From: an uncultured Candidatus Saccharibacteria bacterium
GTDB lineage: Bacteria; Patescibacteriota; Saccharimonadia; CAILAD01; GCA-016700035
Length of the DNA stretch: 48,871 bases
Assembly: GCA_937996675.1 (NCBI GenBank)
Contig: CALKUN010000113.1
Coordinates: 1 to 48,871, forward strand
Direction of reading: 5' to 3'
The first letter of the stretch is position 1. Each line of letters begins with the position of its first letter. Position numbers and translations under genes: made by a program. Of this stretch, positions 15,755 through 33,305 are shown piece after piece. The notes below the pieces were generated by a model that saw only the letters and a program-made list of their open reading frames with translations, was not told the DNA's origin and did no database searches.

Positions 15755-15801
15755 CCCAAGGCTTGACCTGAAAAAGCTCACGCTCGTAGTCTGGGAAGAA
15801 T

Positions 15802-15951
15802 ATGAAGTTACGACTCGCAATATTTTTCATGCTTGGGCTATGCTACTACAGCTACATACGTTCGACTGCTGACTTGGCACTCGTCCGTTTGGAGGCATTT
15901 CAGACGAGCTACCTTAGGGCTATTGAGACATACTCAATGCCGCAAAACTAA
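15802..15951 (+). CDS. Possible 49-aa hydrophobic small protein
   Basis: The unlisted short ORF MKLRLAIFFMLGLCYYSYIRST... has a weak GGGAAG SD and TTGACC-18-TAGTCT upstream. It overlaps the stop of the convergent CHAP gene by 4 nt. Weak evidence. Confidence 0.2.
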   Translation: MKLRLAIFFMLGLCYYSYIRSTADLALVRLEAFQTSYLRAIETYSMPQN

Positions 15952-16628
15952 TAGATGTAGCTAAACGAGGTTTCTGGTGCCCAACGGTAGCTGAGTCGGT
16001 TCCAGCCAACATAGTTCATCTCTGATACGTAGACCCGGCCATTTTCGACCTTTTCGACATACACAACGTGACCATAGCGGCCGGCTGTAGTCTGACCGAT
16101 TGCACCTGGACGGGCATTTGGTCCTGTCGTGAAGCCTGCAGCCTTGGCACGAGTCAGCCAGTCACGGGCGTTGCCCCAGTTCTGAGGAATGGGACGGCGT
16201 TTTGAGACATAGGCGGTACATTGACCGTAGGCATAGCCAGTAGCAGTATATTGTTCAGCCTGACTTGGACCCGATTCGCTTGGTTGATCAGTAGCCGGGA
16301 GGGTAGTGACGCTTGAGCTCGCTTCTGGCTTGGCGGCTATTGGGGTTGGCTTTGGTGCTGAGCTGGCAGACAGGACTGGCTGACTTGTGGCGCTACCGCC
16401 ATTGTCTACCGATAAGAATGCCGAAGACTTTGACTCAAAGTCATTACGACTTGCCTGGAAACAAATTGAGAATATAAAGAGGTAGGCCACCACCGTGAGG
16501 GCAGATTTCAGGGTCGGCATTGATGTGCGCAGGCTACGGATCTTTTGTGACAACGGCGAATTCGCCCGGCGGAGTTGTCGGGTGTGGGCTTCGAGTATTT
16601 GGCGTTGTTCGAGCGTAGCTGTGTTCAT
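15948..16628 (-). CDS. Membrane-anchored CHAP-domain peptidoglycan hydrolase
   Basis: N-terminal TM anchor, a Ser/Pro-rich spacer, and a C-terminal CHAP signature (YGQCTAYV ... GHVVYVE ... SEMNY). Confidence 0.8.
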   Translation of the reverse strand: MNTATLEQRQILEAHTRQLRRANSPLSQKIRSLRTSMPTLKSALTVVAYLFIFSICFQASRNDFESKSSAFLSVDNGGSATSQPVLSASSAPKPTPIAAKPEASSSVTTLPATDQPSESGPSQAEQYTATGYAYGQCTAYVSKRRPIPQNWGNARDWLTRAKAAGFTTGPNARPGAIGQTTAGRYGHVVYVEKVENGRVYVSEMNYVGWNRLSYRWAPETSFSYIY

Positions 16629-16754
16629 AAGATATGACGTCCTGAAAAAAGACGATTTGACATAGTAGCATGACCTGAGGATATATGCAATGTTTTTGAC
16701 GTTTTTGCGATCTCAAACTGCTATCATAAGCGTAAGAATAAAAGGAACCACTCT

Positions 16755-17336
16755 ATGCGCAAAGGATCAGCTCATCTCATTGTCGTCCTGCTTGTTGCCC
16801 TCATTATTATTTGTGGACTTGTATACTACGCACTTTTTATGGGCAAGAAGGCTACTGCGCCTGTTGCAAAATCTACGCCAACCGCAGTTTTGCCGGTCAA
16901 AGATGGATACCGCAGAGTAGCTATGGAGGAAGTTACGATTGATGTACCTGCAGGTTGGCAAGAAACAATCGATGATCCGAGTGAGACTGTGCGTACATAT
17001 AAGGAGTACGATGCGGTGACAGGCGACTATGTGTCTTTGACGATTGGCGGTGGTGGACGTTCGAACCCTAGCGATGCATCTTGGGCATATCGACTTAGCG
17101 ATACGAGGCCTAAGTCATTGATTTTGGTAAAAGAAGATGAAGTCCTTTGTGCGGAGTCTGAACCACTCTGTATCGTCGGGGATGGCCAATTGGATATCGG
17201 TGTAAAAATAGATAATGATGGAATGATCGGCATTATTGCAGGCAATCTTTACAGCCTTTATATCGGAAATTCTAAGAATGAAGCGGCGAGTCGACAGCTA
17301 TATCGGGACATCTTGAGCACCGTCCGCGTACAATAA
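16755..17336 (+). CDS. Hypothetical membrane-anchored or exported protein
   Basis: 193-aa ORF with an AAAAGGAA SD and one N-terminal TM helix. No family recognised. Confidence 0.6.
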   Translation: MRKGSAHLIVVLLVALIIICGLVYYALFMGKKATAPVAKSTPTAVLPVKDGYRRVAMEEVTIDVPAGWQETIDDPSETVRTYKEYDAVTGDYVSLTIGGGGRSNPSDASWAYRLSDTRPKSLILVKEDEVLCAESEPLCIVGDGQLDIGVKIDNDGMIGIIAGNLYSLYIGNSKNEAASRQLYRDILSTVRVQ

Positions 17337-17354
17337 TGGTATGAATAAATAAAA

Positions 17355-17381
17355 CTAGCACTCTTGACATGAGAGTGCTAG
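17355..17381. promoter_or_regulatory. CIRCE operator 1 (HrcA binding site) overlapping the hrcA promoter
   Basis: CTAGCACTC-N9-GAGTGCTAG compared with the consensus TTAGCACTC-N9-GAGTGCTAA. The spacer contains TTGACA, and TAGTAT lies 18 nt downstream. The hairpin plus TTTTT could also terminate the upstream gene. Confidence 0.85.
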
Positions 17382-17400
17382 TTTTTGTAGTATAGGGGTA

Positions 17401-17427
17401 CTGGCACTCAGCAATATACAGTGCTAG
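17401..17427. promoter_or_regulatory. CIRCE operator 2 (degenerate)
   Basis: CTGGCACTC-N9-CAGTGCTAG, just downstream of the -10 box. Confidence 0.65.
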
Positions 17428-17489
17428 AATATGTGTAGCACGAGACTGAATTTTCTCGATATAAACGACGTTTTATCTTACAACCACTT

Positions 17490-18194
17490 ATGTCTATCAC
17501 CGCACGACAAGCAGCTATTCTAGCTGAAATCATTCGTCAGTACGCCCATGGAGCCGAACCTGTTGGGAGCCATGCTCTTGCTGAGACGTTTGATGTGTCG
17601 AGTGCGACGATCCGAGCCGATATGGCCGCTCTGGAGCGCGAAGACTACATCTATCAGCCCCACATCTCATCAGGGCGCGTACCTACCGACAAAGGCTATC
17701 GCTTTTACGTCAATAACCTTACTGGTAGCGAAATGGCTACTCGTACGGCTATGACGATGGAGAAGCGCGTTGCGAGCCTCAAAGACCGAACGGATCATGC
17801 TATTAAAATTGCGACTGAGACTCTGTCAGATCTGACTGGTAATATGGCTTTTGCTACGCTCGCGGACAATGTGTACTTCCATGGTCTCCACCAGCTCTTT
17901 TCGCAGCCGGAGTTCGCTCACGCCCTACAGGCCGCCGCCGCCGCTCGCTATCTAGATGCTATGAGTGAATGGCTCTACGGTCGAGGCTTTCGCGATGACA
18001 TGGGCATCTTCATCGGCGCAGAGAACCCCTTCGCCCGTTCGAGCGGAATGGCCATGGTGCTAGCTCGATTCGAGAGCCCTTACTCGCCGTATTCCTACGT
18101 CGGCGTCGTCGGACCGACCAGACAAGATTACGCCAAAGTCACCGGACTCGTTCAGCTCACCGGACAAAAATTAGAGGAGGTCTTCAATGCCTAA
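17490..18194 (+). CDS. hrcA: Heat-inducible transcription repressor HrcA (compact, 234 aa)
   Basis: N-terminal winged helix (RQAAILAEIIRQY...SSATIRADMAALE) and the C-terminal VGVVGPTRQDY motif. The hrcA-grpE-dnaK order and upstream CIRCE sites support the call. Confidence 0.9.
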   Translation: MSITARQAAILAEIIRQYAHGAEPVGSHALAETFDVSSATIRADMAALEREDYIYQPHISSGRVPTDKGYRFYVNNLTGSEMATRTAMTMEKRVASLKDRTDHAIKIATETLSDLTGNMAFATLADNVYFHGLHQLFSQPEFAHALQAAAAARYLDAMSEWLYGRGFRDDMGIFIGAENPFARSSGMAMVLARFESPYSPYSYVGVVGPTRQDYAKVTGLVQLTGQKLEEVFNA

Positions 18195-18753
18195 ACCATC
18201 AGATAACACACCAGAAATTCCCGAACAACCAAAGGGCGCAAAGTCATCTAAGTTTGCAAAGAAGCAGCCCAAGATCGATCCAGTAGAAGTACTTACAGCT
18301 GATCTTCAGCGTGTTCAGGCAGACTTTGAAAACTACAAGAAACGCGTCGCTGGTGAGCGTAGCGAGCTCATGAATAGCGCCAAGCTATCAGTGCTCTCTG
18401 ACCTTCTTCCGGCCCTTGATAATTTTGACCGAGCAGCCACTCATCTTCCTGAGCATCTCACGAGTGATCCATGGGCACAGGGGATGAGCTATGTTGGCTC
18501 GCAGCTCGAGACAATTCTGTCCGACATGGGCGTCAAGAAATTTGATCCAGCCGGCCAGGAATTTGATGCCACAGAGCATGAAGCTCTGGAGTACGTTGAG
18601 TCGGACAAGCCAGAGGGGATCGTGCTTGAAACGCTCACTCCGGGCTATATCATTGGCGATCGGGTCGTCCGCCCAGCCACCGTTCGCGTGAGCTCAGGAG
18701 CTTTTCAGCCAAACCAACAAGACATTGATGACGCTAAGGAGGATACCGCATGA
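18187..18753 (+). CDS. grpE: Nucleotide exchange factor GrpE
   Basis: The coiled-coil LQRVQADFENYKKR motif and a C-terminal beta domain. It overlaps the hrcA stop. Confidence 0.93.
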   Translation: MPKPSDNTPEIPEQPKGAKSSKFAKKQPKIDPVEVLTADLQRVQADFENYKKRVAGERSELMNSAKLSVLSDLLPALDNFDRAATHLPEHLTSDPWAQGMSYVGSQLETILSDMGVKKFDPAGQEFDATEHEALEYVESDKPEGIVLETLTPGYIIGDRVVRPATVRVSSGAFQPNQQDIDDAKEDTA

Positions 18754-18932
18754 ACAAACCAAAACTTAAAATCATCTTGACGGCGATTTTAGCTTTCATC
18801 CTCGCTGTTCTGCTCTTTCGCGTCACAATGATTTTTGTTCAGGTAATTATCGGCTTCAGTATCATACTTGCACTTACGGTTATTATCTTTACAGCAATTA
18901 ATTCACGCTCGCAGAAAGGGCCCATCGAATGA
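18750..18932 (+). CDS. Small two-TM membrane protein inside the heat-shock operon
   Basis: 60-aa ORF with an ATGA overlap on the grpE stop and two clear hydrophobic helices. Confidence 0.45.
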   Translation: MNKPKLKIILTAILAFILAVLLFRVTMIFVQVIIGFSIILALTVIIFTAINSRSQKGPIE

Positions 18933-19011
18933 ATGAATTTTTGAAAGCTCTCGCACTCATCAAGAAGCGTAACGAAGACAAGAAACAAGAAGCAGCTAAG
19001 AAGGAGAATAA

Positions 19012-20925
<1,914 letters not shown>

Positions 20926-20955
20926 AAATGATCGAAAAAGAAGTAAACTAGAAGT

Positions 20956-21294
20956 ATGAAGACACTCATCGCCATGAGCTTGGCAGTGCTGCTCCTCCTC
21001 TCAGCAGGCTACTTCGCTACCACAACGATCACTACTAAGGTTGATCAAACCTGTAGTAGCGAATCAAACTACCAAAACTCATGGCGTGATGTGTATTTTT
21101 TCACGCAGCAGTCTGAGACCGGAGGCACGCCCTCCATGGACCTTAGGATGTGCACAGGGCCCTCAGTATACGTCCGTTACCACCCGGTAGACGTCGCGGC
21201 TGTGAGCTTCCTTGGCGCCCTGACGGCTGGCTTCATAACCTACAGAAATGAGACAATGCATACTAAGAAACCAAAACAGAAGGAGACAAAATAA
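20956..21294 (+). CDS. Hypothetical exported or membrane protein
   Basis: 112-aa ORF with an N-terminal signal/TM segment and a C-terminal hydrophobic segment. Its stop overlaps the next start (TAATG). Confidence 0.5.
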   Translation: MKTLIAMSLAVLLLLSAGYFATTTITTKVDQTCSSESNYQNSWRDVYFFTQQSETGGTPSMDLRMCTGPSVYVRYHPVDVAAVSFLGALTAGFITYRNETMHTKKPKQKETK

Positions 21295-21689
21295 TGACTG
21301 AAACACCTGATAATCTCCGTACTATTCATATCTACGTCGTCGAAGGCGATGACGTGTGGATCAAGCAGAATAATGACAGTCTGAACATCCAGTGGGATCC
21401 ACAGTCGGACGTCAAAGCGGGCGAGACGGTGTCTCGTCTGATGAACGAAGTATTCAATGGGAAACCGTTTGAGTTTCTCAACAGCGCCGAAAAGGCGTAT
21501 GATCCTACAGCGAAGGCCTTTTACTTTCTCGTCATGCTGCGCAACATCGGTGGGCCGACCGCAGCAGCGTCGGATTTGAAGAAGGTCAAGTCGATCTGGC
21601 TCACAGATGAAATCAACAAGCCAGACGGCGAATCAGAACTAATCAAAGATAGCTTCAAGCACTTTAAGCTATTACATAAACGAGTATAA
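21294..21689 (+). CDS. Hypothetical protein
   Basis: 131-aa ORF tightly packed in the operon. No family recognised. Confidence 0.5.
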   Translation: MTETPDNLRTIHIYVVEGDDVWIKQNNDSLNIQWDPQSDVKAGETVSRLMNEVFNGKPFEFLNSAEKAYDPTAKAFYFLVMLRNIGGPTAAASDLKKVKSIWLTDEINKPDGESELIKDSFKHFKLLHKRV

Positions 21690-21691
21690 CT

Positions 21692-22597
21692 ATGAAGACA
21701 ATATTTTTTATTGATGGCGAAAACTTCGTCTACCAACTACGTGACACATTGGCTAAAGGCCGCCTCATCCGCTACCGCGATGAGCTGGCACGTGTGGATA
21801 TTCGCAAGCTCTTTGTGAATACCCTGCAAGATGAAGGTGTGAAGGACTCGAGTATCCGCTACTATGCCTCCAAGATCCACATTATTGACCGTACGCCAGA
21901 GCTGAAAGAACGTACTGAGCGCTACCTAGCCGACTCTGAAGTCTGGCAGAAGGTCCTGGCTGACCAAAAGGTCGAATATATCGAAGCAGGTCACTTGCTC
22001 GTCCGTGACGGCAAACCATGCGTGGAGTGCGGACACCGTGAGCCTGTTTTGACCGAGAAGGGAACAGATGTAACTATCGCGACTGATCTCATCCGTGCAT
22101 CAGGCGAGAATGTTCGACTCGTCCTCTTGAGCTCAGATGGAGACCTCATGCCGGCGCTCGAAGAGTCCAAGCGACGTGGCTCCGAAGTGATTTATGTTGG
22201 ATTCCGCGGCGTGAGCAATGCGGCTCTCGCGCGGAATGCGACCAGCCGATTTACGATTACTACCAAGCTCGCCGCTGCCGTATTGGCACCAAAGTCCAAG
22301 TCTGATCCTGAATCAAAGGCTCGTCCAAAAGTTGGCGAGGTCAAAGGCAAAGGCACGACACAGCAGCAGAAGCCGCAAGCGACTGAGCACACTCACGCCG
22401 AACAGCCAGCTCCAGCTCAGGAAGTAAAGCCAAAGCCACAGAATCAGCAACGACGTGGACGAAATAATAACAATACTAATCGACAGAAGCCCGCCGCCGA
22501 TCAGCCAAGCGTATTTACCGGCTCTCGTCTAGCGAGCATTCTGCCAGGACCAGCGCCTGCCCAAAAGAAGGATAAGACCGATGGCCGAAAAGCGTGA
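21692..22597 (+). CDS. NYN-domain (LabA-like, PIN-fold) putative RNase with inserted zinc-ribbon-like segment and disordered basic tail
   Basis: [19 protein letters not shown] and [11 protein letters not shown] motifs of NYN domains, plus a CVECGH insert. The last 100 aa or so are low-complexity and K/P/Q-rich. It overlaps the dnaJ start by 17 nt. Confidence 0.7.
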
Positions 22598-23495
22598 TTA
22601 CTACGATATCCTCGGAGTACAGCGCGATGCGAGCCCCGACGATATCAAGAAGGCTTTTAAGAAGGCGGCTCTAAAGCACCATCCCGATCGCGAGGGCGGT
22701 GACGAAGCGAAGTTCAAAGAAGTTGGTGAGGCCTATGAGGTACTCTCCGATGATCAGAAGCGCGCTGCCTACGATCAGTATGGTCATGCGGCTGGCGCAG
22801 CCAACGCGGGCGGACCAGGCGGGGGTAATCCCTTTGGTGGTGGAGCTGGTGGATTTGATTTTGGCGGAATTCATTTCGACTTTGGTGGCGAACAAGCCGG
22901 AGGCTTTGGCGATATGTTTGGCGATTTATTTAGCACGGTGCGTGGTCGTCCGCGCGACGTCCAGGTCGCTCTGGCCATTGAGTTTATGGAAGCTATCCAT
23001 GGAGTCGAGCGCGAGCTCAGTCTGCGTATTATGGATCGCAGCACCAATGAGCGTAAGTCTGAAACGGTGAAGATCAAAGTGCCAGCCGGTATTGATGACG
23101 GTCAGACGATTCGCGTCGGTGGACGCGGTGAGTATGGGAGCCAAGGACAACGTGGCGATCTGTACGTAGAGATTCACGTTCGTCCAGATCGCAACTTTGA
23201 ACGGCAGGGTCCACACATTGTGAGTCGCGTAAAGGTTGATATGGTCGATGCCGCTCTCGGTACCGAGGTTGAGATCAAGACCCTTGAGGGCGATGTAACA
23301 ATTAAGGTCCCAGCTGGAACGCAGCCAGGCAAAGTACTCAAGTTGAGTGGCAAAGGGGTAGCCGTACCGGGCTCGAACCAGCACGGTGATCATCTCGTGG
23401 AGGTTAGTATTCATATTCCAACTAAGCTGACGGCCAAACAGAAAGCAGCCTTGCAGGACTATCGCAAAGGTCAGAAAAAAAGCCTCTTTCATTAA
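22581..23495 (+). CDS. dnaJ: J-domain co-chaperone lacking the zinc-finger domain (class B, CbpA-like DnaJ)
   Basis: J domain with HPD (KHHPDR), a G/F-rich region and C-terminal substrate-binding domains. The 304-aa protein contains no cysteine at all, so the CxxCxGxG domain is absent. Confidence 0.9.
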
Positions 23496-23503
23496 ATTAC
23501 GAA

Positions 23504-23531
23504 GCCCATGCTTGTAAAAGAAAGCATGGGC
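23504..23531. terminator. Bidirectional hairpin between dnaJ (+) and GC-rich cassette C (-)
   Basis: GCCCATGCTT-GTAAAAGA-AAGCATGGGC. Confidence 0.6.
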
Positions 23532-23539
23532 ACTTGAGT

Positions 23540-23935
23540 CTAGGCGAGAGTGAGGTCGGTGAGGCTGTACAGCCACTCGTAGCCTGACATCTCCTGCAGA
23601 ATTCTCAAGACGGCGTGAATGAGTGGCCTGACCTCGGCATCACTCGGTAGAGCTGATTTGTCCGCGAAGTCGTCGCGGTTGAGGATGAGGTGAAAGCCAT
23701 CACCGATGGAGCCGAGGCGCGTACATGAGGGCAGCTCCGGCGCTACCACATAGAGCTTCACGAACGGGTCATCACCGTGGTGGGCCAACAGTTGGAGCCA
23801 GTTGTCTTCATAGAAGGAAAAGGCGAGCGTGAGTTGTCCTCGCCTGTCGACGGATCGGTCGACAACGAGCCACTTGGTGGGCAGGGGCTGACGCGTGGGG
23901 CCAGCCAGATCAGTGCCTGACTCAGTTGTACTCAT
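23540..23935 (-). CDS. GC-rich orphan protein C (131 aa), no family recognised
   Basis: ATG with a GGGAGA SD. It is G/C-rich with G/C-dominated third positions and has its own promoter and terminator. Confidence 0.6.
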   Translation of the reverse strand: MSTTESGTDLAGPTRQPLPTKWLVVDRSVDRRGQLTLAFSFYEDNWLQLLAHHGDDPFVKLYVVAPELPSCTRLGSIGDGFHLILNRDDFADKSALPSDAEVRPLIHAVLRILQEMSGYEWLYSLTDLTLA

Positions 23936-23971
23936 AGAAGGTTCTCCCGGGTCGAGTGGGTTTGTGGTGAT

Positions 23972-24000
23972 AGCCTACATCTGTCGCTCAGTGCTGTCAA
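23972..24000 (-). promoter_or_regulatory. sigma70-type promoter of cassette C
   Basis: On the minus strand TTGACA (24000-23995), a 17-nt spacer, then TAGGCT (23977-23972). Confidence 0.55.
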
Positions 24001-24011
24001 TAAAATTACAA

Positions 24012-24039
24012 GACCCCTACGCTGGCTTGCGTAGGGGTC
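24012..24039 (-). terminator. Hairpin terminator of cassette D
   Basis: GACCCCTAC-GCAAGCCAGC-GTAGGGGTC on the minus strand, followed by TTGTAATTTTATT. Confidence 0.65.
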
Positions 24040-24048
24040 GGGGAAGGA

Positions 24049-24504
24049 CTAGCCGTCGCACATGATTCGCTCGAAGTACTCCGGCGGGTGCGACCTCAGG
24101 TTGAGGGGATTGGTCAGCGGCGCATCGGTTGGTGCCGGCGGTACTTCCCACTCATCCCAGAGGTCGTCCTCGAAGGACGGTCTGGGTGGGGATCGCTGAG
24201 TAAGGGTGGCCTTGGAGGTGTGGACCGACTCGAAGCCGGGCACTTCGCGGATGGCGATGTCGATTTTCCGGGCGGCGGCTTCGCTCAGAAGGGCCGTGCG
24301 GAAGCGGATCACCAGTTCGCCGCGAGGGCTGGCGATGGAGAGGAGGAGGCCGTCGAGCGCGATGCCGCCGATGCGTTCCAGTCGCTCACGAATGATTCCG
24401 GCCTTCCAGAACTTGCCGTCCTGGCAGTCGCTGCTGAAACCGTGCGGGAGGTGTGTGACGCTCAGTTGGTAGGTATCGGTACCGAAGTGGGGTGCAATGG
24501 TCAT
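24049..24504 (-). CDS. GC-rich orphan protein D (151 aa); shares a roughly 50-aa motif block with protein E
   Basis: ATG with a GGAG SD. A hand count of line 24301 gave about 70% G+C. A shadow ORF on the plus strand (24088..24519) is typical of high-GC coding DNA. Confidence 0.6.
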   Translation of the reverse strand: MTIAPHFGTDTYQLSVTHLPHGFSSDCQDGKFWKAGIIRERLERIGGIALDGLLLSIASPRGELVIRFRTALLSEAAARKIDIAIREVPGFESVHTSKATLTQRSPPRPSFEDDLWDEWEVPPAPTDAPLTNPLNLRSHPPEYFERIMCDG

Positions 24505-24539
24505 GGGTGCTCCAGATGAGTAGAGTTACATCGGAGCAA

Positions 24540-24568
24540 ATATTACATCCTTAAGGTGTAAATGTCAA
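24540..24568 (-). promoter_or_regulatory. sigma70-type promoter of cassette D
   Basis: On the minus strand TTGACA (24568-24563), a 17-nt spacer, then TAATAT (24545-24540). Confidence 0.6.
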
Positions 24569-24605
24569 TATGGGTTCTGTTCCGCTAGCAAGGCTGAGAC
24601 GGACA

Positions 24606-24637
24606 AAGCCTCCCTGTCTGGTGGGACAGGGAGGCTT
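24606..24637 (-). terminator. Hairpin downstream of cassette E
   Basis: 13-bp stem AAGCCTCCCTGTC / GACAGGGAGGCTT with a 6-nt loop. The downstream T-run is weak (TTGTCC). Confidence 0.45.
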
Positions 24638-24660
24638 GATGGGTGAATGTGAGGTGTGGC

Positions 24661-25038
24661 TCAGCCGGCGCTGGCACCTCCGAAGCCGAAGGGCACGCTG
24701 GAGTCGATGGCCATCGGCGTGAAGGGCTGCCGCTCAAAGGCGGCGTGGTTGCCGCTGAGCGTCTCCTGCACGCCGACCTTGCAGCCAGCCAGAGCGGCCA
24801 GGGCGCGTTCGATGTAACGCTGCACCACCTCACTGAGGCGGTTGGAGCGGACGCTGACCACCAGAGTGCCGTTCTCGATTCGGCAAGCAGTGACGTCGAG
24901 CTCCGGAATGGTGCGGTTCAGCCGATCCGCAAACTCCGACATGTCGGCGGCTTCGAGGGAGAGGGCGAGTGGTGGCTTGACGCTGACCTGCTTCTCATCT
25001 CTGGCTGCCGACGTGACTGAGGTACTCGTGTTGATCAT
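24661..25038 (-). CDS. GC-rich orphan protein E (125 aa); paralogous block with protein D
   Basis: ATG 25038 is preceded by a GAGAGGA SD. The track start at 25107 is the TTG of the -35 box. G/C-rich, with a plus-strand shadow ORF at 24643..25020. Confidence 0.6.
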   Translation of the reverse strand: MINTSTSVTSAARDEKQVSVKPPLALSLEAADMSEFADRLNRTIPELDVTACRIENGTLVVSVRSNRLSEVVQRYIERALAALAGCKVGVQETLSGNHAAFERQPFTPMAIDSSVPFGFGGASAG

Positions 25039-25077
25039 GAAAATCCTCTCGGGGAAGTACGGGAATGGACAGTGGTC

Positions 25078-25107
25078 ATCGTACGCCGCATTACGTACTT
25101 TTGTCAA
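25078..25107 (-). promoter_or_regulatory. sigma70-type promoter of cassette E
   Basis: On the minus strand TTGACA (25107-25102), an 18-nt spacer, then TACGAT (25083-25078). Confidence 0.5.
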
Positions 25108-25141
25108 CTTTATTATTGTCTGAAAATGTTACAATAAGCGT

Positions 25142-25669
25142 ATGCAATTTGGCTCAGTTCACGTCGATCCCAACTTCCTGATATTTGGTGTGCTTGGCGT
25201 GTTCTTTGTACTCACCTTTCTCTTCGGTGAAACCCGACTCCGGCGGGTGGCACTTGCACTACTTGCTGGGCTCTTCGCGGCTGACCAACTGACAAATCTC
25301 GCAATGACACAGCTCTCCAAGTCTGGCAGCGGGGGCGGTGAAGAAATGATGATCAAGCTCGGTATCCTTGGTACTATTCTGGTGCTCATGTCGCTGGGCA
25401 AAGCACCATCAGTCGGCGGCCACTTCTCTATACGCAGCATGGTACTCTCATTACTTACTGCAGCAACGCTTCTAGCGAATGTCTTTAGTTACCTGCCATC
25501 AGGGGAACAAAGCCAGTTGGAGAATGACTATAATCTTGCAGCTATCGCGATGAATAATCGTTCGTGGTGGCTCGTAGGTTTAATTTTCTGGCTCATCTTG
25601 CTACAACTCTGGAAGAAGAAGGCCAAAGAAGACGACTCAGCCGGTAAAGGCAAGAAGGGCAAGAAATAG
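25142..25669 (+). CDS. Hypothetical integral membrane protein
   Basis: 175-aa ORF with about 5 hydrophobic helices and a Lys-rich tail. TACAAT lies 6 nt upstream of the ATG and there is no SD. Confidence 0.6.
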   Translation: MQFGSVHVDPNFLIFGVLGVFFVLTFLFGETRLRRVALALLAGLFAADQLTNLAMTQLSKSGSGGGEEMMIKLGILGTILVLMSLGKAPSVGGHFSIRSMVLSLLTAATLLANVFSYLPSGEQSQLENDYNLAAIAMNNRSWWLVGLIFWLILLQLWKKKAKEDDSAGKGKKGKK

Positions 25670-25723
25670 ACTGCATGAGGCCCGGAGCTTGTATCGAGAG
25701 AGTATTTCCACTAGGCTAAATCG

Positions 25724-27016
25724 ATGAAGCAAACGCTCTACGAACGCCTCCTCAGGCGTTTTTTGATCAGCTGTATCCGGCGAGTCATGCGCAAGCAGTC
25801 GCCTCGGGTTATTGTCGTGACTGGTAGTCTCGGCAAGACTTCGACGCGGGCTGCTGTGGCGCGAGCCATCTCTGGTAGCTGGCCAGTCTTCACTCGCAGC
25901 CTCAAGAGCAACTTTGACCGAGGCCCCCTCATGGCGTTCTTCGGCCTGCGCCCCAACAAGAACATTCGCGGACGGCGTTTTTGGGTAGAAGATGTGCCGC
26001 GCATTTTGCGGCTCAGCAAGAAATATCCATATGAGCTGGTAGTGTTGGAAATATCTGAGATATCACTTACCAACCAGCTTGACCTGATAGAGGTGTTGCA
26101 GCCTACGATCTCTGTGCTGACAAGTCTCGCCAAGGTGCACGCATCGGATCACGCCGAGGATGACATCACATTACAGATGCAGAGCCTTATCGAGCATAGT
26201 GAGTCAGTTATCTACAATGCTGACTTTTCATCGCTGAAGGTAGTGGTCGACAATCATCCGCGAGTGAAGAGTTATGGTAGCGCCCGAACAGCCGACTATC
26301 GATTGATAGTGGCTGGGGTTGGCATAGACCAGCTCAGCAATTTCGTAATCCGACATGGCATGCAAGAATGGGACGTGCCGAGCAATCAGATCGGTCAGCA
26401 CTCTGGCGTGGCATACTCCGCGGCATTGGCCGTGACGGATGTGCTGGGCGGTGACATCCCCGATGCAATTGCCGAACTCAAGCTGCTCTACCCGGTGCGA
26501 GGTCGTCTCAATCCATTGCGGGGCATTCGTAAGTCTCTCATCATTGACGACTGCTACAACGCGAACGCTATCTCGATGGGTGCGGCGCTTGATACCCTGG
26601 CTCGGTTCCCGGCACCACGTATCGCTGTCTTGGGCAGTATGAATGAACTCGGCGACCATAGCCCTCGCGAGCACCGGGCTGTCGGTAGGAGAGTAGCGCA
26701 GTCGGCTGATGTGCTCATTGCGATAGGCGAAGATTCTACTCGCTATCTAGCACCTGCTGCGATACAGGCAGGCATGAAGTCCGACCAAGTGCATACATTC
26801 GAGTCGGCCCGAGCAGCCGGTGCCTATCTCAAACGGCATGTAGCCGTAAGCAGTACTGTTATGGGCAAGGGCTCTCAAGACGGCGTCTATACCGAAGAGG
26901 CCTTGCTTCCACTAGTAGTAGGGCGTGACAAGCGGCGACTGATCCGTCAGACGGCTTTCTGGCGAGCCAAAAAAGATCGTTTCTATGCCAATCTACAGAC
27001 TCGTCCAACTGAGTAA
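25724..27016 (+). CDS. Mur ligase family protein, MurF-like, lacking the N-terminal domain
   Basis: P-loop VTGSLGKTST, and DDCYNANAISMGAALDTL and GSMNELG blocks that resemble MurF. It sits next to ATP-grasp ligases rather than in a dcw cluster. Confidence 0.75.
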   Translation: MKQTLYERLLRRFLISCIRRVMRKQSPRVIVVTGSLGKTSTRAAVARAISGSWPVFTRSLKSNFDRGPLMAFFGLRPNKNIRGRRFWVEDVPRILRLSKKYPYELVVLEISEISLTNQLDLIEVLQPTISVLTSLAKVHASDHAEDDITLQMQSLIEHSESVIYNADFSSLKVVVDNHPRVKSYGSARTADYRLIVAGVGIDQLSNFVIRHGMQEWDVPSNQIGQHSGVAYSAALAVTDVLGGDIPDAIAELKLLYPVRGRLNPLRGIRKSLIIDDCYNANAISMGAALDTLARFPAPRIAVLGSMNELGDHSPREHRAVGRRVAQSADVLIAIGEDSTRYLAPAAIQAGMKSDQVHTFESARAAGAYLKRHVAVSSTVMGKGSQDGVYTEEALLPLVVGRDKRRLIRQTAFWRAKKDRFYANLQTRPTE

Positions 27017-27021
27017 AGGTA

Positions 27022-27050
27022 TTTACAAAGATCTTAAAAACAGGTATAAT
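27022..27050 (+). promoter_or_regulatory. sigma70-type promoter directly abutting the first ATP-grasp gene
   Basis: TTTACA (27022-27027), a 17-nt spacer, then TATAAT (27045-27050), then 9 nt to ATG 27060 with no SD. Confidence 0.5.
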
Positions 27051-27059
27051 ATAAGCACT

Positions 27060-27995
27060 ATGACCACCAAGCCACACAATCATGATGTGCTGGTCTTTTT
27101 TAGCTTTAAGTCCCACAAAAAAGGCTACTACAAGACACTCTTCGACCGTCTGACGAGCCAGGCGGCTGATTTTGGTTTGACTCTGCATCAGGGCTCACTC
27201 AAGGACCTCGTTATTTCCTACAAAGATAATAAGATGGAGATCACCGAAACAATGACCGGACGTGATCTATCTTCGTTTGGACTCGTATACTTTGAGCTTT
27301 TTACCAAGGCTCCACAGCAGGCATTGGCCGCCGCCGCTTACTTGGACCGCAAGAGGGTGCCATACTTCTCGCCGCAGGTTCGACAGATCCTTCCAGACTC
27401 TAAGCTGGCCGAAATGGCTCTCTTGGCCGATAATGGGCTCTCGATTCCAGATGGCATCACGTCTTCAAATACTCAGCTCAAGTCGATCTTTCGCGCGGAC
27501 CATCCAATTGAGTACCCATTCATTCTCAAAAGCGTGAAAGCCTTTGGTGGTGCTATGAATTTTTTGGTTCACGACTATGCCGAGCTTGTTGCTCACTTGG
27601 ATGAGAATCCGCAGGAGACGTTTATTATTCAGAGCTTTATTCCAAACCAGTTTGATTACCGCGTTCTGATCTTCGGTGGTGAGGTCAAACTCGTGCTCAA
27701 GCGATCACGCAATAGCGCCGAGACCCATCTCAATAACACATCCAAGGGTGCAGCTGGCGAATTCCTCGACCCATCCGAACTCACCGAAGATCAGATGGCT
27801 GATACACTCAAAGCAGCCAAGCTGCTCGGCCGGGAGGAGTTCTGTGGACTCGACCTGATTATCAATGAGCAGACTGGCGAGCACAGCATTCTGGAGATTA
27901 ATGAATCACCTGGTATCGAGCTTGGTGTCGAGCCTGAGAAGAAAATGGGCATCATGCTGGCCTATATGAAATCACGAATGGAGACACAGTCATGA
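27060..27995 (+). CDS. RimK-type ATP-grasp ligase paralog 1
   Basis: DYRVLIFGGEV, HLNNTSKGAAGE, GLDLI and ILEINESPG blocks matching the RimK/GshB-like ATP-grasp core. The start is chosen at the ATG after the promoter; track ORF 26985 overlaps the upstream gene. Confidence 0.75.
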   Translation: MTTKPHNHDVLVFFSFKSHKKGYYKTLFDRLTSQAADFGLTLHQGSLKDLVISYKDNKMEITETMTGRDLSSFGLVYFELFTKAPQQALAAAAYLDRKRVPYFSPQVRQILPDSKLAEMALLADNGLSIPDGITSSNTQLKSIFRADHPIEYPFILKSVKAFGGAMNFLVHDYAELVAHLDENPQETFIIQSFIPNQFDYRVLIFGGEVKLVLKRSRNSAETHLNNTSKGAAGEFLDPSELTEDQMADTLKAAKLLGREEFCGLDLIINEQTGEHSILEINESPGIELGVEPEKKMGIMLAYMKSRMETQS

Positions 27996-29383
27996 CACGA
28001 CCAGCTATGCAGAAGCCGCGAATTCTCTTCATGTTTGCCCGTGAGGCGGCAGCTGGATCGACTCGTTTTGATGGTTTTGTGAAGCGCCTCAAGAAGTATG
28101 GTGACTTCTCATTTGCGGACGCTGATGTTGCAGCGATCGAAGATATGGTCTTCCTGATCGATAAGCGCAAGGCCAAAGTCATCGACTGGCGTACGAAGAA
28201 AGACCCAGCCGACTACGACTTTGTGTACTTCAAGAACTGGCAGAGTATGCCCGACCAAGCAGCAGCCCTAGCTGTGTATCTAGAAGCCAAGGGTGTGCCA
28301 TACATCGACTACGCGATCACTCAGCGTCGTGGTAATGCTGGTAAGATTATCACTATGCTCAAGCTTTGGGCGGCACGCATTGCTACGCCGCGTACTGTTT
28401 ACGCATCGCCGAAACGCGTCGCGGACGTAGTGAGTTCCGATCTTGTGCAGTATCCGATGGTGATCAAGGCTGCGAATGGTGAGAAAGGTCAGAATAATTA
28501 TCTTGTAAAGACTGCTGCAGCAGCCCGCAAGGTCATTGCTGAACAGCCCGAGATCGACTGGATCATTCAGGACTTCATTCCAAATGATGGCGATTGGCGT
28601 GTACAAGTCTATGGCGGAGAGCCGGCCATGGTGATCAAGCGCAAGGGGAGTGGCGCGTCGCATCTCAATAATACTTCGGCTGGCGGAACGGCTGAGCTCT
28701 TTGAGCACAAAAAGGTACCCACAGCTGTGCTAGACTTGGCAGTCAAGGCTGCCGAGGTAATGGATCTTGCAGTATCGGGAGTAGACGTCATCGTCGACAA
28801 AGAGACCGGACGCAAGGCTATTCTTGAGGTGAACCAAGGTTCGCAAGTAGTCACTGGCGCGCATATCGAAGAAAACATCCAGGGCTTTGTAAAGTTCCTG
28901 AAGCGCACCACTCGCCGCCGCTACCATCGTAAGTCGACCCACGGCCTGCCGAAGAAAGTCATCGGACGCATCGAGCTGGTAGGGCTTCCCGAGTTTGGCC
29001 TCACCGACATTGCTGCAAAGTCTGACACTGGTGCATATAGTGGTGCATTGCACGCTGAGAACATCCGCCTGATCGAAAAAGGAAACAAGAAAGAACTTCA
29101 TTTTCAAATCCCGCACTTCACCGATGGCCGCACCCACACCACTGAACTCGTCGATTGTGTCAGTCATGACTTTGAAGCAGTTTTTGTAAAAAGCTCCAAT
29201 GGACAACGGCAGAACCGCTATAAGATCAGTACACTAGTACGTATACAAGGGCGCGGCTATCAGGCGCAATTCACCCTTACGAACCGTCAAACCCAGAAGG
29301 TGCCAATGCTGCTCGGCCGCAAGCTGTTGCGCGGCAACTTCCTAGTCAATGTAGAACTATCAAGAGGAGAAACACAATCATGA
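27992..29383 (+). CDS. Fusion of RimK-type ATP-grasp ligase (paralog 2) and a RimB/DUF785-like retropepsin-type aspartic peptidase domain
   Basis: The ATP-grasp blocks DWRVQVYGGEP, HLNNTSAGGTAE, GVDVIVD and ILEVNQGS are present. The C-terminal 150 aa or so carry AKSDTGAYSGALHA (DTG active-site-like) and MLLGRKLLRGNFLVN, as in proteins annotated 'putative ATP-dependent zinc protease' (RimB). ATGA overlap with the upstream gene. Confidence 0.7.
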   Translation: MTRPAMQKPRILFMFAREAAAGSTRFDGFVKRLKKYGDFSFADADVAAIEDMVFLIDKRKAKVIDWRTKKDPADYDFVYFKNWQSMPDQAAALAVYLEAKGVPYIDYAITQRRGNAGKIITMLKLWAARIATPRTVYASPKRVADVVSSDLVQYPMVIKAANGEKGQNNYLVKTAAAARKVIAEQPEIDWIIQDFIPNDGDWRVQVYGGEPAMVIKRKGSGASHLNNTSAGGTAELFEHKKVPTAVLDLAVKAAEVMDLAVSGVDVIVDKETGRKAILEVNQGSQVVTGAHIEENIQGFVKFLKRTTRRRYHRKSTHGLPKKVIGRIELVGLPEFGLTDIAAKSDTGAYSGALHAENIRLIEKGNKKELHFQIPHFTDGRTHTTELVDCVSHDFEAVFVKSSNGQRQNRYKISTLVRIQGRGYQAQFTLTNRQTQKVPMLLGRKLLRGNFLVNVELSRGETQS

Positions 29384-30288
29384 AAATCGCCATTCTATCA
29401 GCCGGACGAAAAAACTACTCTACTCAACGTCTCATGGAGGCGGCGGTTGCGCGTGGTCACGAAGCTATTATCGTCAACTACACCAAGGCATATATGGCGA
29501 TTGAGAGCTCTAACCAGACGGTACACGCTGCCGATCAGGAGATCACTGAAGATGTGCAGGCGGTAATTCCTCGTATTGCAGCCAAGCACACCAACTACGG
29601 TACGGCTGTGTTGCGTCAGTTTGAAATGATGCGTGCCTATACAGCGACCAGCTCACTGGCTCTCGTCCGTAGCCGTGACAAGCTCCGTTCGATGCAGCTT
29701 CTCGCTCGTGCTGGCGTGGGTATTCCCAAGACCGTCTTTGCGAGCCAGACAGCTGATGCTAACGACCTCCTTGAGCTCGTCGGCGGCGCACCGGTAGTTG
29801 TGAAACTCCTCGAAAGTACTCATGGATCAGGCGTCGTGTTGGGTGAGACTAAGAAAACTGCCAAGTCTATTATTGAGGCCTTCAACTCGATCAATGCCAA
29901 GATCATCTTGCAGGAGTTTGTGGAAGAAGCTGACGGCGCTGACATTCGTGTAGTCGTGGTAGGCGATCGCATCGTGGCTTCGATGATGCGTAAGGGCGGT
30001 GAAGGTGAATTCCGTAGTAACACTCATCGTGGCGGACAGGTTCTTCCAGTCCAACTCACCAAGAAGGAGGCAAACATCGCGCTCAAGGCGGCTCGTACGC
30101 TCGGTATTAATATTGCTGGTGTAGATATCATCCGATCAAAGCGTGGCCCATTGATCCTCGAAGTAAACAGCTCACCAAGCCTCAAGGGCGTGGAGCGTCT
30201 CACCGGGCAGGACATCGCTGGCGAGATGATCGACTATGTAGTCGCGCGAGCACAGGGCAAGCGAACGCGCGATAAGATAGGGGCATAA
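29380..30288 (+). CDS. rimK: Ribosomal protein S6--L-glutamate ligase-type ATP-grasp enzyme (RimK)
   Basis: Canonical RimK length and blocks: DIRVVVVGDRIVASM, EFRSNTHRGG, GVDIIRS, ILEVNSSPSL. ATGA overlap with the upstream gene. Confidence 0.85.
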   Translation: MKIAILSAGRKNYSTQRLMEAAVARGHEAIIVNYTKAYMAIESSNQTVHAADQEITEDVQAVIPRIAAKHTNYGTAVLRQFEMMRAYTATSSLALVRSRDKLRSMQLLARAGVGIPKTVFASQTADANDLLELVGGAPVVVKLLESTHGSGVVLGETKKTAKSIIEAFNSINAKIILQEFVEEADGADIRVVVVGDRIVASMMRKGGEGEFRSNTHRGGQVLPVQLTKKEANIALKAARTLGINIAGVDIIRSKRGPLILEVNSSPSLKGVERLTGQDIAGEMIDYVVARAQGKRTRDKIGA

Positions 30289-30337
30289 AGCTTTCTTAGC
30301 TGTTGCTGGCTTACGTTCGTGACGGTGTAGATAATAC

Positions 30338-30366
30338 TTGATTATTACTGATAAAAATAGTATAAT
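30338..30366 (+). promoter_or_regulatory. sigma70-type promoter of GC-rich cassette F
   Basis: TTGATT (30338-30343), a 17-nt spacer, then TATAAT (30361-30366). A strong SD AAGGAAGGAG lies at 30397-30406. Confidence 0.6.
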
Positions 30367-30411
30367 ATCGAACTGCACCACTACATCTCTCTACATAAGG
30401 AAGGAGCTCGC

Positions 30412-31701
30412 ATGAGCTCAACCGCAACCCGTTGGAAGGATCAGTCCTTCGCTATCGCATCCTCAAATGGAGCGGCGCCGATCCATGATTGGTTCGAACA
30501 GACACCCGAGGTGCTGGCACGCTTGCGTGCAGCTCTTCTCGCCGGCAGCCCGTTGAATCCTCAGTACCCCGTACTTCAGGCTCAGGATCTCACCGCCAAG
30601 GTCGCAAGTCTGAGCGGATACACGGCATCCGACCAGCCGCTGGAGAAGTTGTACTCGCAGGTCTTCAGCCAGCGCAGGAGGCTTCTGCAGCTGGCCATCG
30701 CCGCGCAGGCGGGTGACATGGCAGCCTTCAGGGTCGCCACAGAGAACATGGCCCTGCAGCCGGACGTCGGATCGTTTCGACGCATTCTCGGCAATCTCGC
30801 CGAGCGTGCTGGAGACCGACCCAACCGGGCCGCCGAAGAGCTGTTCGGCATGTTCCCGCCGGACTACGGCTTCAAGCCGAGCTTGCCGCGAGCAGCCTTC
30901 GTTCAGAAGCTGCGCGATCCAGTGATGGCACTGGTCGAGTCGCTCGGTCTGCCAACCGTCATCCCTCCCGCCGAGGAGGTGTGGGATGCCAAGCGCATCG
31001 CTGCGACCCTGGAAGCCACGGTTCTGCCACCGGCGTTCGATGATGCGCGCGTCAAGATGCGCGTCGTCATCACCGCCAAGAAGCCACGCCCCGTCGCCAC
31101 GCGGAAGGGCACGATGTACATCCCGGAGAGCCTCATGCTCAACGGGGTGGATGCATATGTGCTGATGGTGCGCCTTCGACTCACCGTCGAGCGCTGGTAC
31201 CGAGGTGAGCTCACCGGCTACTACATCATGCTCAACGGCACCGTTGCCGACCTGACTGCCGGCCCGGCCATCCTCACGGTGGTCGAGCAGGTTCTGAGGA
31301 GCAATGCCAACTTCTACGCCGAGGAAGATGCCTACCTGGCATGCTCGTTGGCGGAGGGGATCGGCTCTGAGCCCAAGTCCATCTACGAAGTGTACGCCGC
31401 CATGGTGGCGTACTACCGCTTCGTGGACACGCAGCTGCCCACGGGTGCCGCCATTCCACGCTCGATCGAAGACCGCGCGTGGTCGATGACCTGGAAGACC
31501 TTCGCCGGAACCGACTGCAAGACCCCCGGGGTCTACGCCGGTTTCGGTACCAGGGCTTTGCGAGCCACGGTCAGCCTCTGGGATGCCCTTATGCGCGAGC
31601 CGCGCATCGTCGAGTGCTTCCACCTGGGTCGATTCGATCCTGGCTTCGCGACCGAAGTGAACCTTCTGGTCGAAGCGGGGGCCATTCCGGCTCTGAGGTA
31701 G
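30412..31701 (+). CDS. GC-rich orphan protein F (429 aa), no family confidently recognised
   Basis: Hand counts of lines 30481 and 30781 gave about 65-68% G+C, with G/C-dominated third positions on the plus frame. The 386-aa antisense shadow ORF (30463..31623) is typical of high-GC coding DNA. A strong SD precedes the start and a terminator follows. Confidence 0.7.
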   Translation: MSSTATRWKDQSFAIASSNGAAPIHDWFEQTPEVLARLRAALLAGSPLNPQYPVLQAQDLTAKVASLSGYTASDQPLEKLYSQVFSQRRRLLQLAIAAQAGDMAAFRVATENMALQPDVGSFRRILGNLAERAGDRPNRAAEELFGMFPPDYGFKPSLPRAAFVQKLRDPVMALVESLGLPTVIPPAEEVWDAKRIAATLEATVLPPAFDDARVKMRVVITAKKPRPVATRKGTMYIPESLMLNGVDAYVLMVRLRLTVERWYRGELTGYYIMLNGTVADLTAGPAILTVVEQVLRSNANFYAEEDAYLACSLAEGIGSEPKSIYEVYAAMVAYYRFVDTQLPTGAAIPRSIEDRAWSMTWKTFAGTDCKTPGVYAGFGTRALRATVSLWDALMREPRIVECFHLGRFDPGFATEVNLLVEAGAIPALR

Positions 31702-31716
31702 GAGGATTTAGTACCC

Positions 31717-31759
31717 GCGACTGTTGCTATGACGTACGTCATAGCAACAGTCGCTTTTT
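31717..31759. terminator. Strong hairpin terminator after cassette F, shared with the convergent trpC-like gene
   Basis: Perfect 17-bp stem GCGACTGTTGCTATGAC / GTCATAGCAACAGTCGC with loop GTAC, followed by TTTTT. Confidence 0.85.
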
Positions 31760-32298
31760 CATGCGTGCCGGCTGGCTACAAATTGTTCAAGGTGAGTGCC
31801 GACGAGTATGGCATCGGCAGCTGGATCGACATCGTTCATTGTCATGATGTTGCTGGCTTGGCAAAGCCATCCTCTGAAAGCTTTGCGGGCCTCCGCGAAT
31901 GTTTCTGATTTGAGCCCGCCAGTAGCAAGGTCGCGGCTGTTCCAGACAGCACGACATTGCCCGGGCAGTCTGGTGAGTTCAGCGATGGTGTAGGGTTCAA
32001 TGAGGCACTTATCTAGATGGATAGCAGGTATTCGTCCGACAACGAGCACATGGTCGGCGCCTGCCACGAGAGCTTGTTTGATGTCATCATCGCTCGCATG
32101 GATTCCTTTTGCGAGGATTGGCTTAGTGGTGAGGCTACGGGCTTTCCGCACCAGGTCAAAAGATCCATGCCAGCGTGGATCGGTATGGATTGAGATAATA
32201 TCACCGACCTCGTTCGCCATTGCGAAGAGTTCGCTCCAGCTCTTGTCGGACTGCCATCCAAAAGGGGAGTGAGTTTTTACCTCGGCGATGACCTGCAT
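31759..32298 (-). CDS. Short indole-3-glycerol-phosphate synthase (TrpC)-like TIM-barrel protein
   Basis: IAEVKTHSP.G, ISIHTD...GSF, PILAKG, GADHVLV, NSRDL and LVG blocks occur in IGPS order. It is only 179 aa, and no other trp genes are in the window. Confidence 0.55.
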   Translation of the reverse strand: MQVIAEVKTHSPFGWQSDKSWSELFAMANEVGDIISIHTDPRWHGSFDLVRKARSLTTKPILAKGIHASDDDIKQALVAGADHVLVVGRIPAIHLDKCLIEPYTIAELTRLPGQCRAVWNSRDLATGGLKSETFAEARKAFRGWLCQASNIMTMNDVDPAADAILVGTHLEQFVASRHA

Positions 32299-32300
32299 AG

Positions 32301-32639
32301 CTAGCCTTTGAGTATCTGGGCTTGGCGAAGCGTAACGATCTCTCTGATGACAGTCTCTGGAAGCGGCTTGTTTTCGGTAAACTGCAGTGTGCCATGGCCA
32401 GAGAGGGTGAAGCCTTCGAGCTTGTCGGCGATCTCGTCCACGTTACCAAAGATGCTCATGTGGTTCTTAAAGGCTGCAAACATGAAGAGCTGTTTACCAT
32501 TTAGCTTGAAGGTTGGCATATCGTAGCTGATAGTTTCTTCAGCCTCGGGCACGGCTTCGTGCACGATTTTGCGAATGCGTTCCATTTCAGTACGCTGTGA
32601 TGGTGTGACTTTGGCGAGGTATTCATCGATGGTTTTCAT
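32301..32639 (-). CDS. DUF1801 (YdhG-like) domain protein
   Basis: MKTIDEYL...QR..MERIRKIV...PEAEETISYDMPTFK pattern, typical of DUF1801. Confidence 0.7.
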   Translation of the reverse strand: MKTIDEYLAKVTPSQRTEMERIRKIVHEAVPEAEETISYDMPTFKLNGKQLFMFAAFKNHMSIFGNVDEIADKLEGFTLSGHGTLQFTENKPLPETVIREIVTLRQAQILKG

Positions 32640-32707
32640 GAGGTTATATTAACAGATGTAAATATTTCCATACGAATGCCCTGGAGATAGAAGAACGGCG
32701 GCCTTAT

Positions 32708-33250: not shown

Positions 33251-33305
33251 AAATTAACCACCTCTCAGGTCGTGGATGGAATATTCTTAGTATAGAAGTT
33301 GTGAG

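Follow-up and report, generated by a model that had tools for sequence, protein, structure and literature searches.

In a 48,871-nt stretch of a Candidatus Saccharibacteria genome (contig CALKUN010000113.1, assembly GCA_937996675.1; forward strand, positions 1-48,871), hereafter the window, three small open reading frames (ORFs) that we named C, D, and E lie between dnaJ and a conserved membrane-protein gene; their divergent homologues in relatives are written C', C'', and D'. Comparison with related contigs revealed that the position after dnaJ is a hypervariable, sharply bounded slot for accessory genes, and that the trio consists of taxonomically restricted, fast-evolving accessory genes of this flexible chromosomal slot, matched by no known family. 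In this context, the explanation that we favor is that a wastewater Saccharibacteria lineage holds here rapidly diversifying small soluble proteins, putatively strongly expressed and plausibly acting as conflict or interaction factors. We judge this explanation to have somewhat better than even prospects when taken whole (i.e., the slot, real and separately transcribed genes, E as a duplicate of D, and a binding mechanism).

An accessory-gene slot downstream of dnaJ

The slot follows, on the plus strand, the order hrcA-grpE-dnaK, two orphan genes, an NYN-domain gene, and dnaJ, to which C, D, and E are convergent; past it, the plus strand carries a gene for a 175-aa membrane protein, a Mur-ligase-like gene, and three RimK-type ATP-grasp genes. 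Its borders are marked by contig L098, which carries the protein P0049 and whose DnaJ, membrane protein, and Mur-ligase-like protein (MurL) are 96.7, 88, and 80% identical, respectively, to those of the window. In a blastn comparison, homology between L098 and the window ends exactly at positions 23496 and 25123, and the slot measures 1626 bp in the window vs. 532 bp in L098, where a homologue of C (31% identical) stands alone and both D and E are absent. A third lineage, L099, reached through its DnaJ cluster (P0051; DnaJ 92.4% identical), carries C' (123 aa, 26% identical to C) and D' (100 aa, 33% identical to D), each with its own TTGACA promoter, and D' is devoid of the acidic, proline-rich tail of D. 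Since both L099 contigs run out about 100 bp upstream of D', too early to show any E, E is not scorable in this lineage. With that limit, the C family occurs in three of three lineages, D in two of three, and E only in the species of the window. On our best reading, C is the oldest, resident family of the slot.

What is kept across lineages at 26-33% identity is the position, a similar length, the promoter boxes, and the terminators, together with the motifs PS[DE]xE...EWxY in C and TDTY...LS[ED]xAAR in D. Moreover, a Shine-Dalgarno sequence and an ATG are properly spaced in C, D, and E, as well as in the L098 and L099 homologues. In a distant Saccharibacteria metagenome-assembled genome (MAG), L060, RimK genes follow dnaJ at a distance of slightly more than 1 kb, none of the C, D, or E families is found between them, and no Mur-ligase homologue was detected near dnaJ.

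The first-pass annotation of this DNA had suggested a small multi-component system of foreign origin, and had tied the idea to co-occurrence of the three families elsewhere. Indeed, a functional system in which C, D, and E work together (defense, toxin-antitoxin-like, or regulatory) would agree with their adjacency, same orientation, similar promoter architecture, and leaders of about 30 nt in all three units, and with the trio being intact in all haplotypes of the window's species. However, the distribution described above, with C alone in L098, C and a tailless D in L099, and E in the window's lineage only, largely refutes the multi-component idea on its own terms; since the families differ between lineages, there is no fixed trio. 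Furthermore, the units are monocistronic, with no translational coupling, and neither the members nor their divergent homologues have a match at threshold in PADLOC, Pfam, NCBIfam, or PHROGs. No catalytic, enzymatic, or DNA-binding motif was recognized in C, D, or E, and the selective regimes of the three are very different. Membership in a type II toxin-antitoxin system was likewise not found, the genes having separate promoters and hairpins and no Pfam toxin or antitoxin match. A three-component system is, in our judgment, very unlikely, and one of foreign origin is unsupported, as the families fail to co-occur and the searches found no donor.

Database searches returned little beyond the clade. 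With PADLOC-DB v2, no match at E-value <= 1 was obtained for C, D, E, C', C'', or D', and the only PADLOC match at the locus was to the NYN protein upstream of dnaJ (HEC-09/NYN); in PHROGs, the best E-value for the trio was 0.42, which gives no phage-family membership. A word-indexed search of 5.8 billion proteins with C, D, and E returned only sequences at least 81% identical, and an exhaustive search of 1.84 billion representatives, made with C only, returned one distant homologue, P0049 (30% identity, E-value 6e-7). Profile searches of PDB sequences gave nothing below an E-value of 0.2. In a GTDB scan with DnaJ, the closest among the matches listed were Saccharibacteria MAGs with 46-53% identity, the species itself not being among the matches listed, and hidden Markov model (HMM) searches for relatives of C, D, and E in 80 GTDB Saccharibacteria loci among the matches listed found none.

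Recent horizontal gain of a G+C-rich cassette from a high-G+C actinobacterial host, its phages, or its plasmids is the reading to which base composition points. The G+C content of the trio is 0.59-0.65 vs. about 0.52 in the backbone, and G+C at third codon positions (GC3) is 0.71, 0.80, and 0.81 in C, D, and E vs. 0.52-0.62 in the flanking genes; for D', GC3 is 0.76, compared with 0.44-0.48 in its backbone. The trio has also diverged less at synonymous sites than the adjacent dnaJ in the same genome pairs. Nevertheless, neither a donor nor a homologue was found in protein collections, by tblastn against 50,697 GenBank phage records, in PLSDB plasmids, in IMG/VR contigs, or in JGI metagenome contigs, a set from which the organism of the window itself is apparently missing. 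No integrase, repeats, or tRNA were found at the slot borders, and the foreign origin proposed earlier is further weakened by families that keep one fixed chromosomal slot in three lineages, with promoter boxes that are conserved across lineages and are A+T-rich, as in the backbone. The sole actinobacterial link is contig L002 (ENA ERZ650265 NODE_9297), which encodes a D-CorC_HlyC fusion (P0002) and is most simply explained as an assembly chimera, with 2.2x coverage and identity to the window up to 24340, followed by unrelated sequence. Taken together, we regard such a gain as decidedly improbable. As for L002 itself, its junction lies at the GGCCTCCTCCTC stretch inside D and joins an unrelated high-G+C CBS/CorC_HlyC gene, so that public protein collections contain a spurious "fusion protein" of 192 aa.

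Transcription units and coding potential

The coordinates and lengths of the three consecutive minus-strand ORFs were confirmed, as were the descriptions of the D tail and of the E terminus (Table 1). Also confirmed was the claim that each gene has its own promoter, Shine-Dalgarno motif, and G+C-rich hairpin, with a T-run at the hairpin of D only, and the separate promoter and hairpin of each gene bear out the proposed arrangement as three monocistronic units. Shine-Dalgarno-like sequences (GAGAGG for E, 25045-25050; GGAG for D, 24510-24513; GGGAG for C) stand 6-9 nt before each ATG, and the intergenic gaps in the trio are 113 and 156 bp. A TTG-extended version of E, of 148 aa, starts at 25107, the first base of the -35 box of E; since the extended ORF overlaps the promoter, it is unlikely to be the real start.

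Table 1. Positions in the window of the slot, its three genes, and their predicted transcription signals
Feature	Position	Strand	Description
Slot	23497-25122	units on minus	C, D, and E; dnaJ stop codon to start region of the 175-aa membrane-protein gene
Hairpin after C	23504-23531	minus	between convergent genes C and dnaJ
Gene C	23540-23935	minus	131 aa; pI 4.9
Promoter of C	23972-24000	minus	TTGACA-17-TAGGCT
Hairpin after D	24012-24039	minus	intrinsic-terminator-like; 11 pairs, then T-run
Gene D	24049-24504	minus	151 aa; acidic, Trp- and Pro-rich tail EDDLWDEWEVPPAP
Promoter of D	24540-24568	minus	TTGACA-17-TAATAT
Hairpin after E	24608-24635	minus	G+C-rich, 11-bp stem; weak U-tract (then only CTTTG)
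Gene E	24661-25038	minus	125 aa; C-terminal end ...PFGFGGASAG
Promoter of E	25078-25107	minus	TTGACA-18-TACGAT

The pattern TTGACA-N16-19-TANNNT has six matches in the window vs. 0.8 expected, a count not attained in any of 100 shuffles. Half of the six are the promoters of C, D, and E; of the others, one precedes tRNA-Met, one precedes the hrcA operon, and one lies at 46498. Based on this window-wide count, the three units carry promoter-like sites of the tRNA and heat-shock-operon class, and on our best reading of the sequence C, D, and E would each be transcribed alone from a near-consensus sigma-70-type promoter, among the strongest promoter-like sites of the window.

These signals persist in relatives whose coding sequence can no longer be aligned. 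In the D promoter, relatives keep the -35 box unchanged and have either TAATAT or TAAAAT at -10, while in the C promoter both hexamers (TTGACA/TAGGCT) are identical in L098 and the L099 counterpart reads TTGACA-18-TAGTCT. Regarding the hairpins, only that of D passed a terminator scan with a T-run; that of E shows one difference among four aligned haplotypes, a loop base in L095, and the stem of that of C is maintained in L098 through changes on both sides. When the upstream regions of C, D, and E were compared, only the TTGACA box was common to them, and because they share nothing else, a duplication of the promoters cannot be shown.

The sense frames of C, D, and E follow the order GC3 > GC1 > GC2, which is reversed in two long ORFs of the antisense strand, of 143 and 125 aa; the latter were rejected as true genes on codon-position G+C and on the orientation of promoter, Shine-Dalgarno, and terminator. 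Judged by such features, C, D, and E are real protein-coding genes. Their products are predicted to be soluble, as no 19-residue window is transmembrane-like (hydropathy maxima 0.72-1.31 vs. 2.30 in the neighboring membrane protein), in agreement with the previous statement that no transmembrane helix is present, and the C family is acidic (pI 4.0-4.9).

An assembly artefact, which had been named as a possible flaw, was ruled out, since over 100 independent assembly blocks contain this locus. In public assemblies, 112 indexed blocks include the exact D protein, and synteny was identical in every contig read (JGI, ENA, Logan, and NCBI GCA_031973115.1 and GCA_020047435.1); one of the sample series comes from a project on wastewater metagenomes (PRJEB14051).

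A different reading is that the functional products are structured, G+C-rich non-coding RNAs and that the ORFs are incidental. It draws on the even spread of substitutions in E over codon positions (13, 19, and 15) and on folding z-scores of -3.05, -1.86, and -2.30 for the three units, values that include the terminator hairpins. On the other hand, RNAalifold with five E haplotypes gave no covariation support (a penalizing covariation term of +2.8, one compensatory pair, and many broken pairs), and Rfam yielded no significant match, with just two far-sub-threshold matches at the E-value threshold. Moreover, the well-spaced Shine-Dalgarno and ATG of all units and of their L098 and L099 homologues, the G+C content by codon position, and the surplus of synonymous changes in C favor coding, and we give the RNA reading hardly any credence.

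Relationship, selection, and possible role of the encoded proteins

D and E are probably homologous, and the likeliest origin of E is a tandem duplication of D within the lineage of the window. The collinear block that had been noticed by eye is real, with 11/29 identical and 16/29 positive residues in BLASTP (E-value 0.002), although the spacers are RLER-x17-G and RLNR-x14-G instead of the x16 and x13 first given. Smith-Waterman alignment gave p = 0.006 (2000 shuffles). In hhalign, D residues 9-92 and E residues 13-87 aligned with 31% identity and a probability of 21%, and P fell from 0.0024 to 0.0011 once D' was added; the score of 25.9 was higher than any obtained when the columns of the E alignment were shuffled 400 times (mean 11.3, standard deviation 2.1, maximum 18.4), which makes the duplicated module proposed in the first-pass annotation probably a case of homology. 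Furthermore, within the set of 114 window ORFs that reach 90 aa, the HMMs of the D and E families were reciprocal best non-self matches (E-values 0.03 and 0.096), and the motif of a candidate new family of D/E paralogues would read G/T-x-[LI]-V-[IV]-x-[FV]-[RS]-[TS]-x-x-L-S-[ED]-x-x-x-x-R-x-I. D' gave no BLASTP alignment with E alone, and no similarity was found between C and D or between C and E.

AlphaFold2 models of D and E have the same element order, beta-alpha-beta-beta-alpha(-beta), with a predicted core at E residues 15-97 and at about residues 9-100 of D; it is on this shared beta-alpha-beta-beta-alpha core that E is considered the probable tandem paralogue of D. Thus, structure prediction agreed with a common module in the order of secondary structure, at low confidence and with no significant Foldseek match, and the fold assignment is tentative because the models are of low confidence. 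Small ferredoxin-like or alpha-beta plait domains resemble D and E in predicted element order and in weak matches (E-values 0.003-0.04), all of which fall on the shared core. E matched the NapD chaperone family NF007840 over residues 25-72 (17.7 bits, E-value 0.0034; cut-off 113 bits), the cyanophycin synthetase N-terminal domain PF18921 (14.3 bits, E-value 0.041; threshold 27 bits), and NF010623 (10.4 bits), and D matched the PG_0320-like C-terminal domain PF21577 (15.9 bits, E-value 0.015; threshold 27 bits). Unlike members of these families, however, D and E score 14-18 bits vs. cut-offs of 27-113; C and D had no match to NF007840, nor D' to PF21577, and a Foldseek search of PDB and BFVD with the E model gave no significant neighbor, only insignificant ones of the alpha/beta-plait type. 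The idea that E is part of a split cyanophycin synthetase together with the Mur-ligase/RimK cluster was rejected on the sub-threshold scores and on the occurrence of the RimK cluster without the trio in L060; the Mur-ligase-like and RimK genes are on the strand opposite to D and E.

Selection was assessed by Nei-Gojobori comparisons of the window with 14 related contigs, expressed as the ratio of nonsynonymous to synonymous polymorphism (pN/pS). In the backbone (dnaK, dnaJ, NYN, membrane, MurL, and RimK genes), pN/pS is 0-0.2. It is 0.24-0.53 in C, with 19 synonymous and 14 nonsynonymous differences from L097, and 0.22-0.65 in D; both genes are under purifying selection, with weak constraint. 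In E, it reaches 0.82 against L003 and 3.4-5.6 against L093-L096, with 5:0 against L004. When each segregating change is counted once, the synonymous:nonsynonymous counts are 22:20 for C, 7:9 for D, and 13:36 for E, and within the species E has 1 synonymous and 15 nonsynonymous changes. Overall, pN/pS in E is about 1, and the evolution of E is most likely neutral to positive, i.e., divergence under relaxed or diversifying selection. Its variable residues cluster at 47-73, the predicted beta-hairpin and start of helix 2, and residue 58 has three alleles (T, I, and Q). Hydrophobic core positions at 59-68 and 74-86 are invariant, except residue 82, as surface positions vary, and the last 24 residues are invariant except for one G118D variant. 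Between lineages, C and D have diverged to 26-33% identity beside a DnaJ of 92-97%, far more than expected from the within-species ratios; this suggests that alleles were replaced or that positive selection acted in episodes.

The main rival of our explanation is that C, D, and E are nearly neutral young orphan "proto-genes," transcribed and perhaps translated, with little or no selected function, and several observations that weigh against our explanation speak for this one. The pooled 36 nonsynonymous and 13 synonymous changes of E are close to the neutral 3:1 and fit drift equally well, and the within-species excess is not formally significant (P = 0.06 vs. neutrality). The last three residues of D are gone in L097. 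The ATG of D is CTG in L095 and L096 and the content of the slot is variable, with D and E absent from L098, both compatible with dispensability. In addition, homologues are limited to this narrow clade, and the G+C-rich sequence leaves ORFs open on both strands, including the antisense ones mentioned above. Other difficulties concern our explanation alone: the high GC3 of the trio is not accounted for; the D-family HMM scores E at just 7.2 bits, about the best random match among 6480 unrelated segments, so that D-E homology stands at P of about 1e-3 and on no decisive score; the structural models have low predicted local distance difference test values (pLDDT 45 for D and 56 for E); and a binding or conflict role is drawn solely from the evolutionary pattern and the absence of enzymatic motifs. 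Conversely, the proto-gene reading is at odds with purifying selection on C and D, with the position, length, motifs, promoter boxes, and terminators that these two maintain at such low identity, and with a core and tail of E that are kept as its surface changes. We consider it unlikely, though worth serious attention.

Under our preferred explanation, the lineage would be one of wastewater of the activated-sludge type, and the slot wedged between dnaJ and the membrane-protein gene would encode small, soluble, mostly acidic products with no catalytic motif, of which D and E would be built on a beta-alpha-beta-beta-alpha plait. C, D, and E would act stoichiometrically, as binding or neutralizing proteins, and would form no obligate three-component system. 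The partner may itself be fast-changing, such as an actinobacterial host factor, a competitor toxin, or a phage. Binding a partner of this kind would explain the turnover of surface residues, gene content, and alleles while promoters, terminators, length, and core are kept, and the fast evolution read from the sequences is compatible with a putative host-directed or anti-phage role. A bolder version, which we hold to be improbable, is that an epibiotic Saccharibacteria clade has in this slot a dedicated "conflict locus." The acidic C-type and the plait-fold D/E-type proteins, strongly expressed, would then be new families of stoichiometric neutralizers, immunity- or anti-defense-like, that bind fast-evolving toxins or defense factors of the actinobacterial host, of competitors, or of phages. 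The arms race would involve exchange and duplication of alleles and gene copies, and E would be the newest duplicate, positively selected at its beta-hairpin.

Among known systems, orphan accessory genes in flexible slots of bacteria, CPR/Patescibacteria included, are similar in having narrow-clade homologues, presence or absence at a fixed, core-bounded position, and elevated pN/pS. The trio differs from the usual orphan slots in that each gene has a near-consensus promoter and a terminator, GC3 is far above that of the backbone, and C is retained across lineages at 26-33% identity between flanking proteins at 80-97%. Likewise, arrays of orphan immunity, anti-CRISPR, or anti-restriction genes resemble the trio in encoding small, soluble, acidic, fast-diversifying, and putatively strongly expressed proteins with no enzymatic motifs and with strain-variable content. 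Unlike them, the trio has no cognate toxin gene, no mobile-element context, and no helix-turn-helix regulator among the scanned neighbors other than HrcA of the heat-shock operon.

CPR bacteria, Saccharibacteria among them, live attached to other bacteria that serve as their hosts. To our knowledge, very few proteins that mediate or protect the interaction between CPR bacteria and their hosts have been described. The slot joins the strongest promoter-like sites of the region with its fastest-evolving, lineage-specific proteins, and promoter strength class combined with fast evolution consequently gives a short, testable list of candidate factors for interaction with host, phage, or competitor. 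Moreover, the step from D to E would illustrate how, in a reduced genome, a gene is born by tandem duplication and then diverges rapidly. Should the proteins instead be near-neutral orphans, the locus shows the turnover that is tolerated beside a heat-shock operon in a genome of the 1-Mb class.

Other features of the window

Variation was also seen within the heat-shock gene cluster. The gap between dnaK and dnaJ (20956-22597, plus strand) holds two orphan genes (112 and 131 aa) and the NYN-domain gene; L095 (10459-11444) has an extra NYN gene between dnaK and dnaJ, and in MAG L054 dnaJ directly follows dnaK. This gap is a second variable spot. The window's DnaJ itself (22581-23495, plus strand; 304 aa) is devoid of the Cys-rich zinc-finger (CxxCxGxG) domain, which is present in the DnaJ of L054 and L060 (362 and 380 aa, respectively).

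On the other side of the slot, the Mur-ligase-like gene and the three RimK-type ATP-grasp genes occupy 25724-30288 (plus strand), one of the latter being fused to a RimB-like zinc-protease domain. Just past this cluster, a G+C-rich orphan ORF of 429 aa (30412-31701, plus strand; G+C 0.63 and GC3 0.78, at the level of D and E) has no Pfam match and a pN/pS of about 0.6 against L093. Another ORF, of 134 aa (3458-3862, plus strand; GC3 0.77), adjoins tRNA-Met (3296-3371, minus strand; consensus promoter 3406-3435) and is possibly another member of this group of G+C-rich orphans.

At 46498-47021 (plus strand), a perfect TTGACA-17-TATTAT promoter is followed by about 450 nt with a G+C content of 0.61, ending in a palindromic hairpin (46982-47021). 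The sole ORF of this unit (46525-46965; 146 aa) is basic, of low complexity, and un-protein-like, and in Rfam the unit had no significant match, with a weak match to the hairpin alone; possible identities are a non-coding RNA that has escaped annotation and a further orphan unit built like the trio's.

Finally, over positions 14049-33354, differences between the window and strains L007-L012 and L093-L095 are patchy, with dense blocks of synonymous single-nucleotide polymorphisms alternating with kilobases of identity, which denotes frequent homologous recombination within this Saccharibacteria species.

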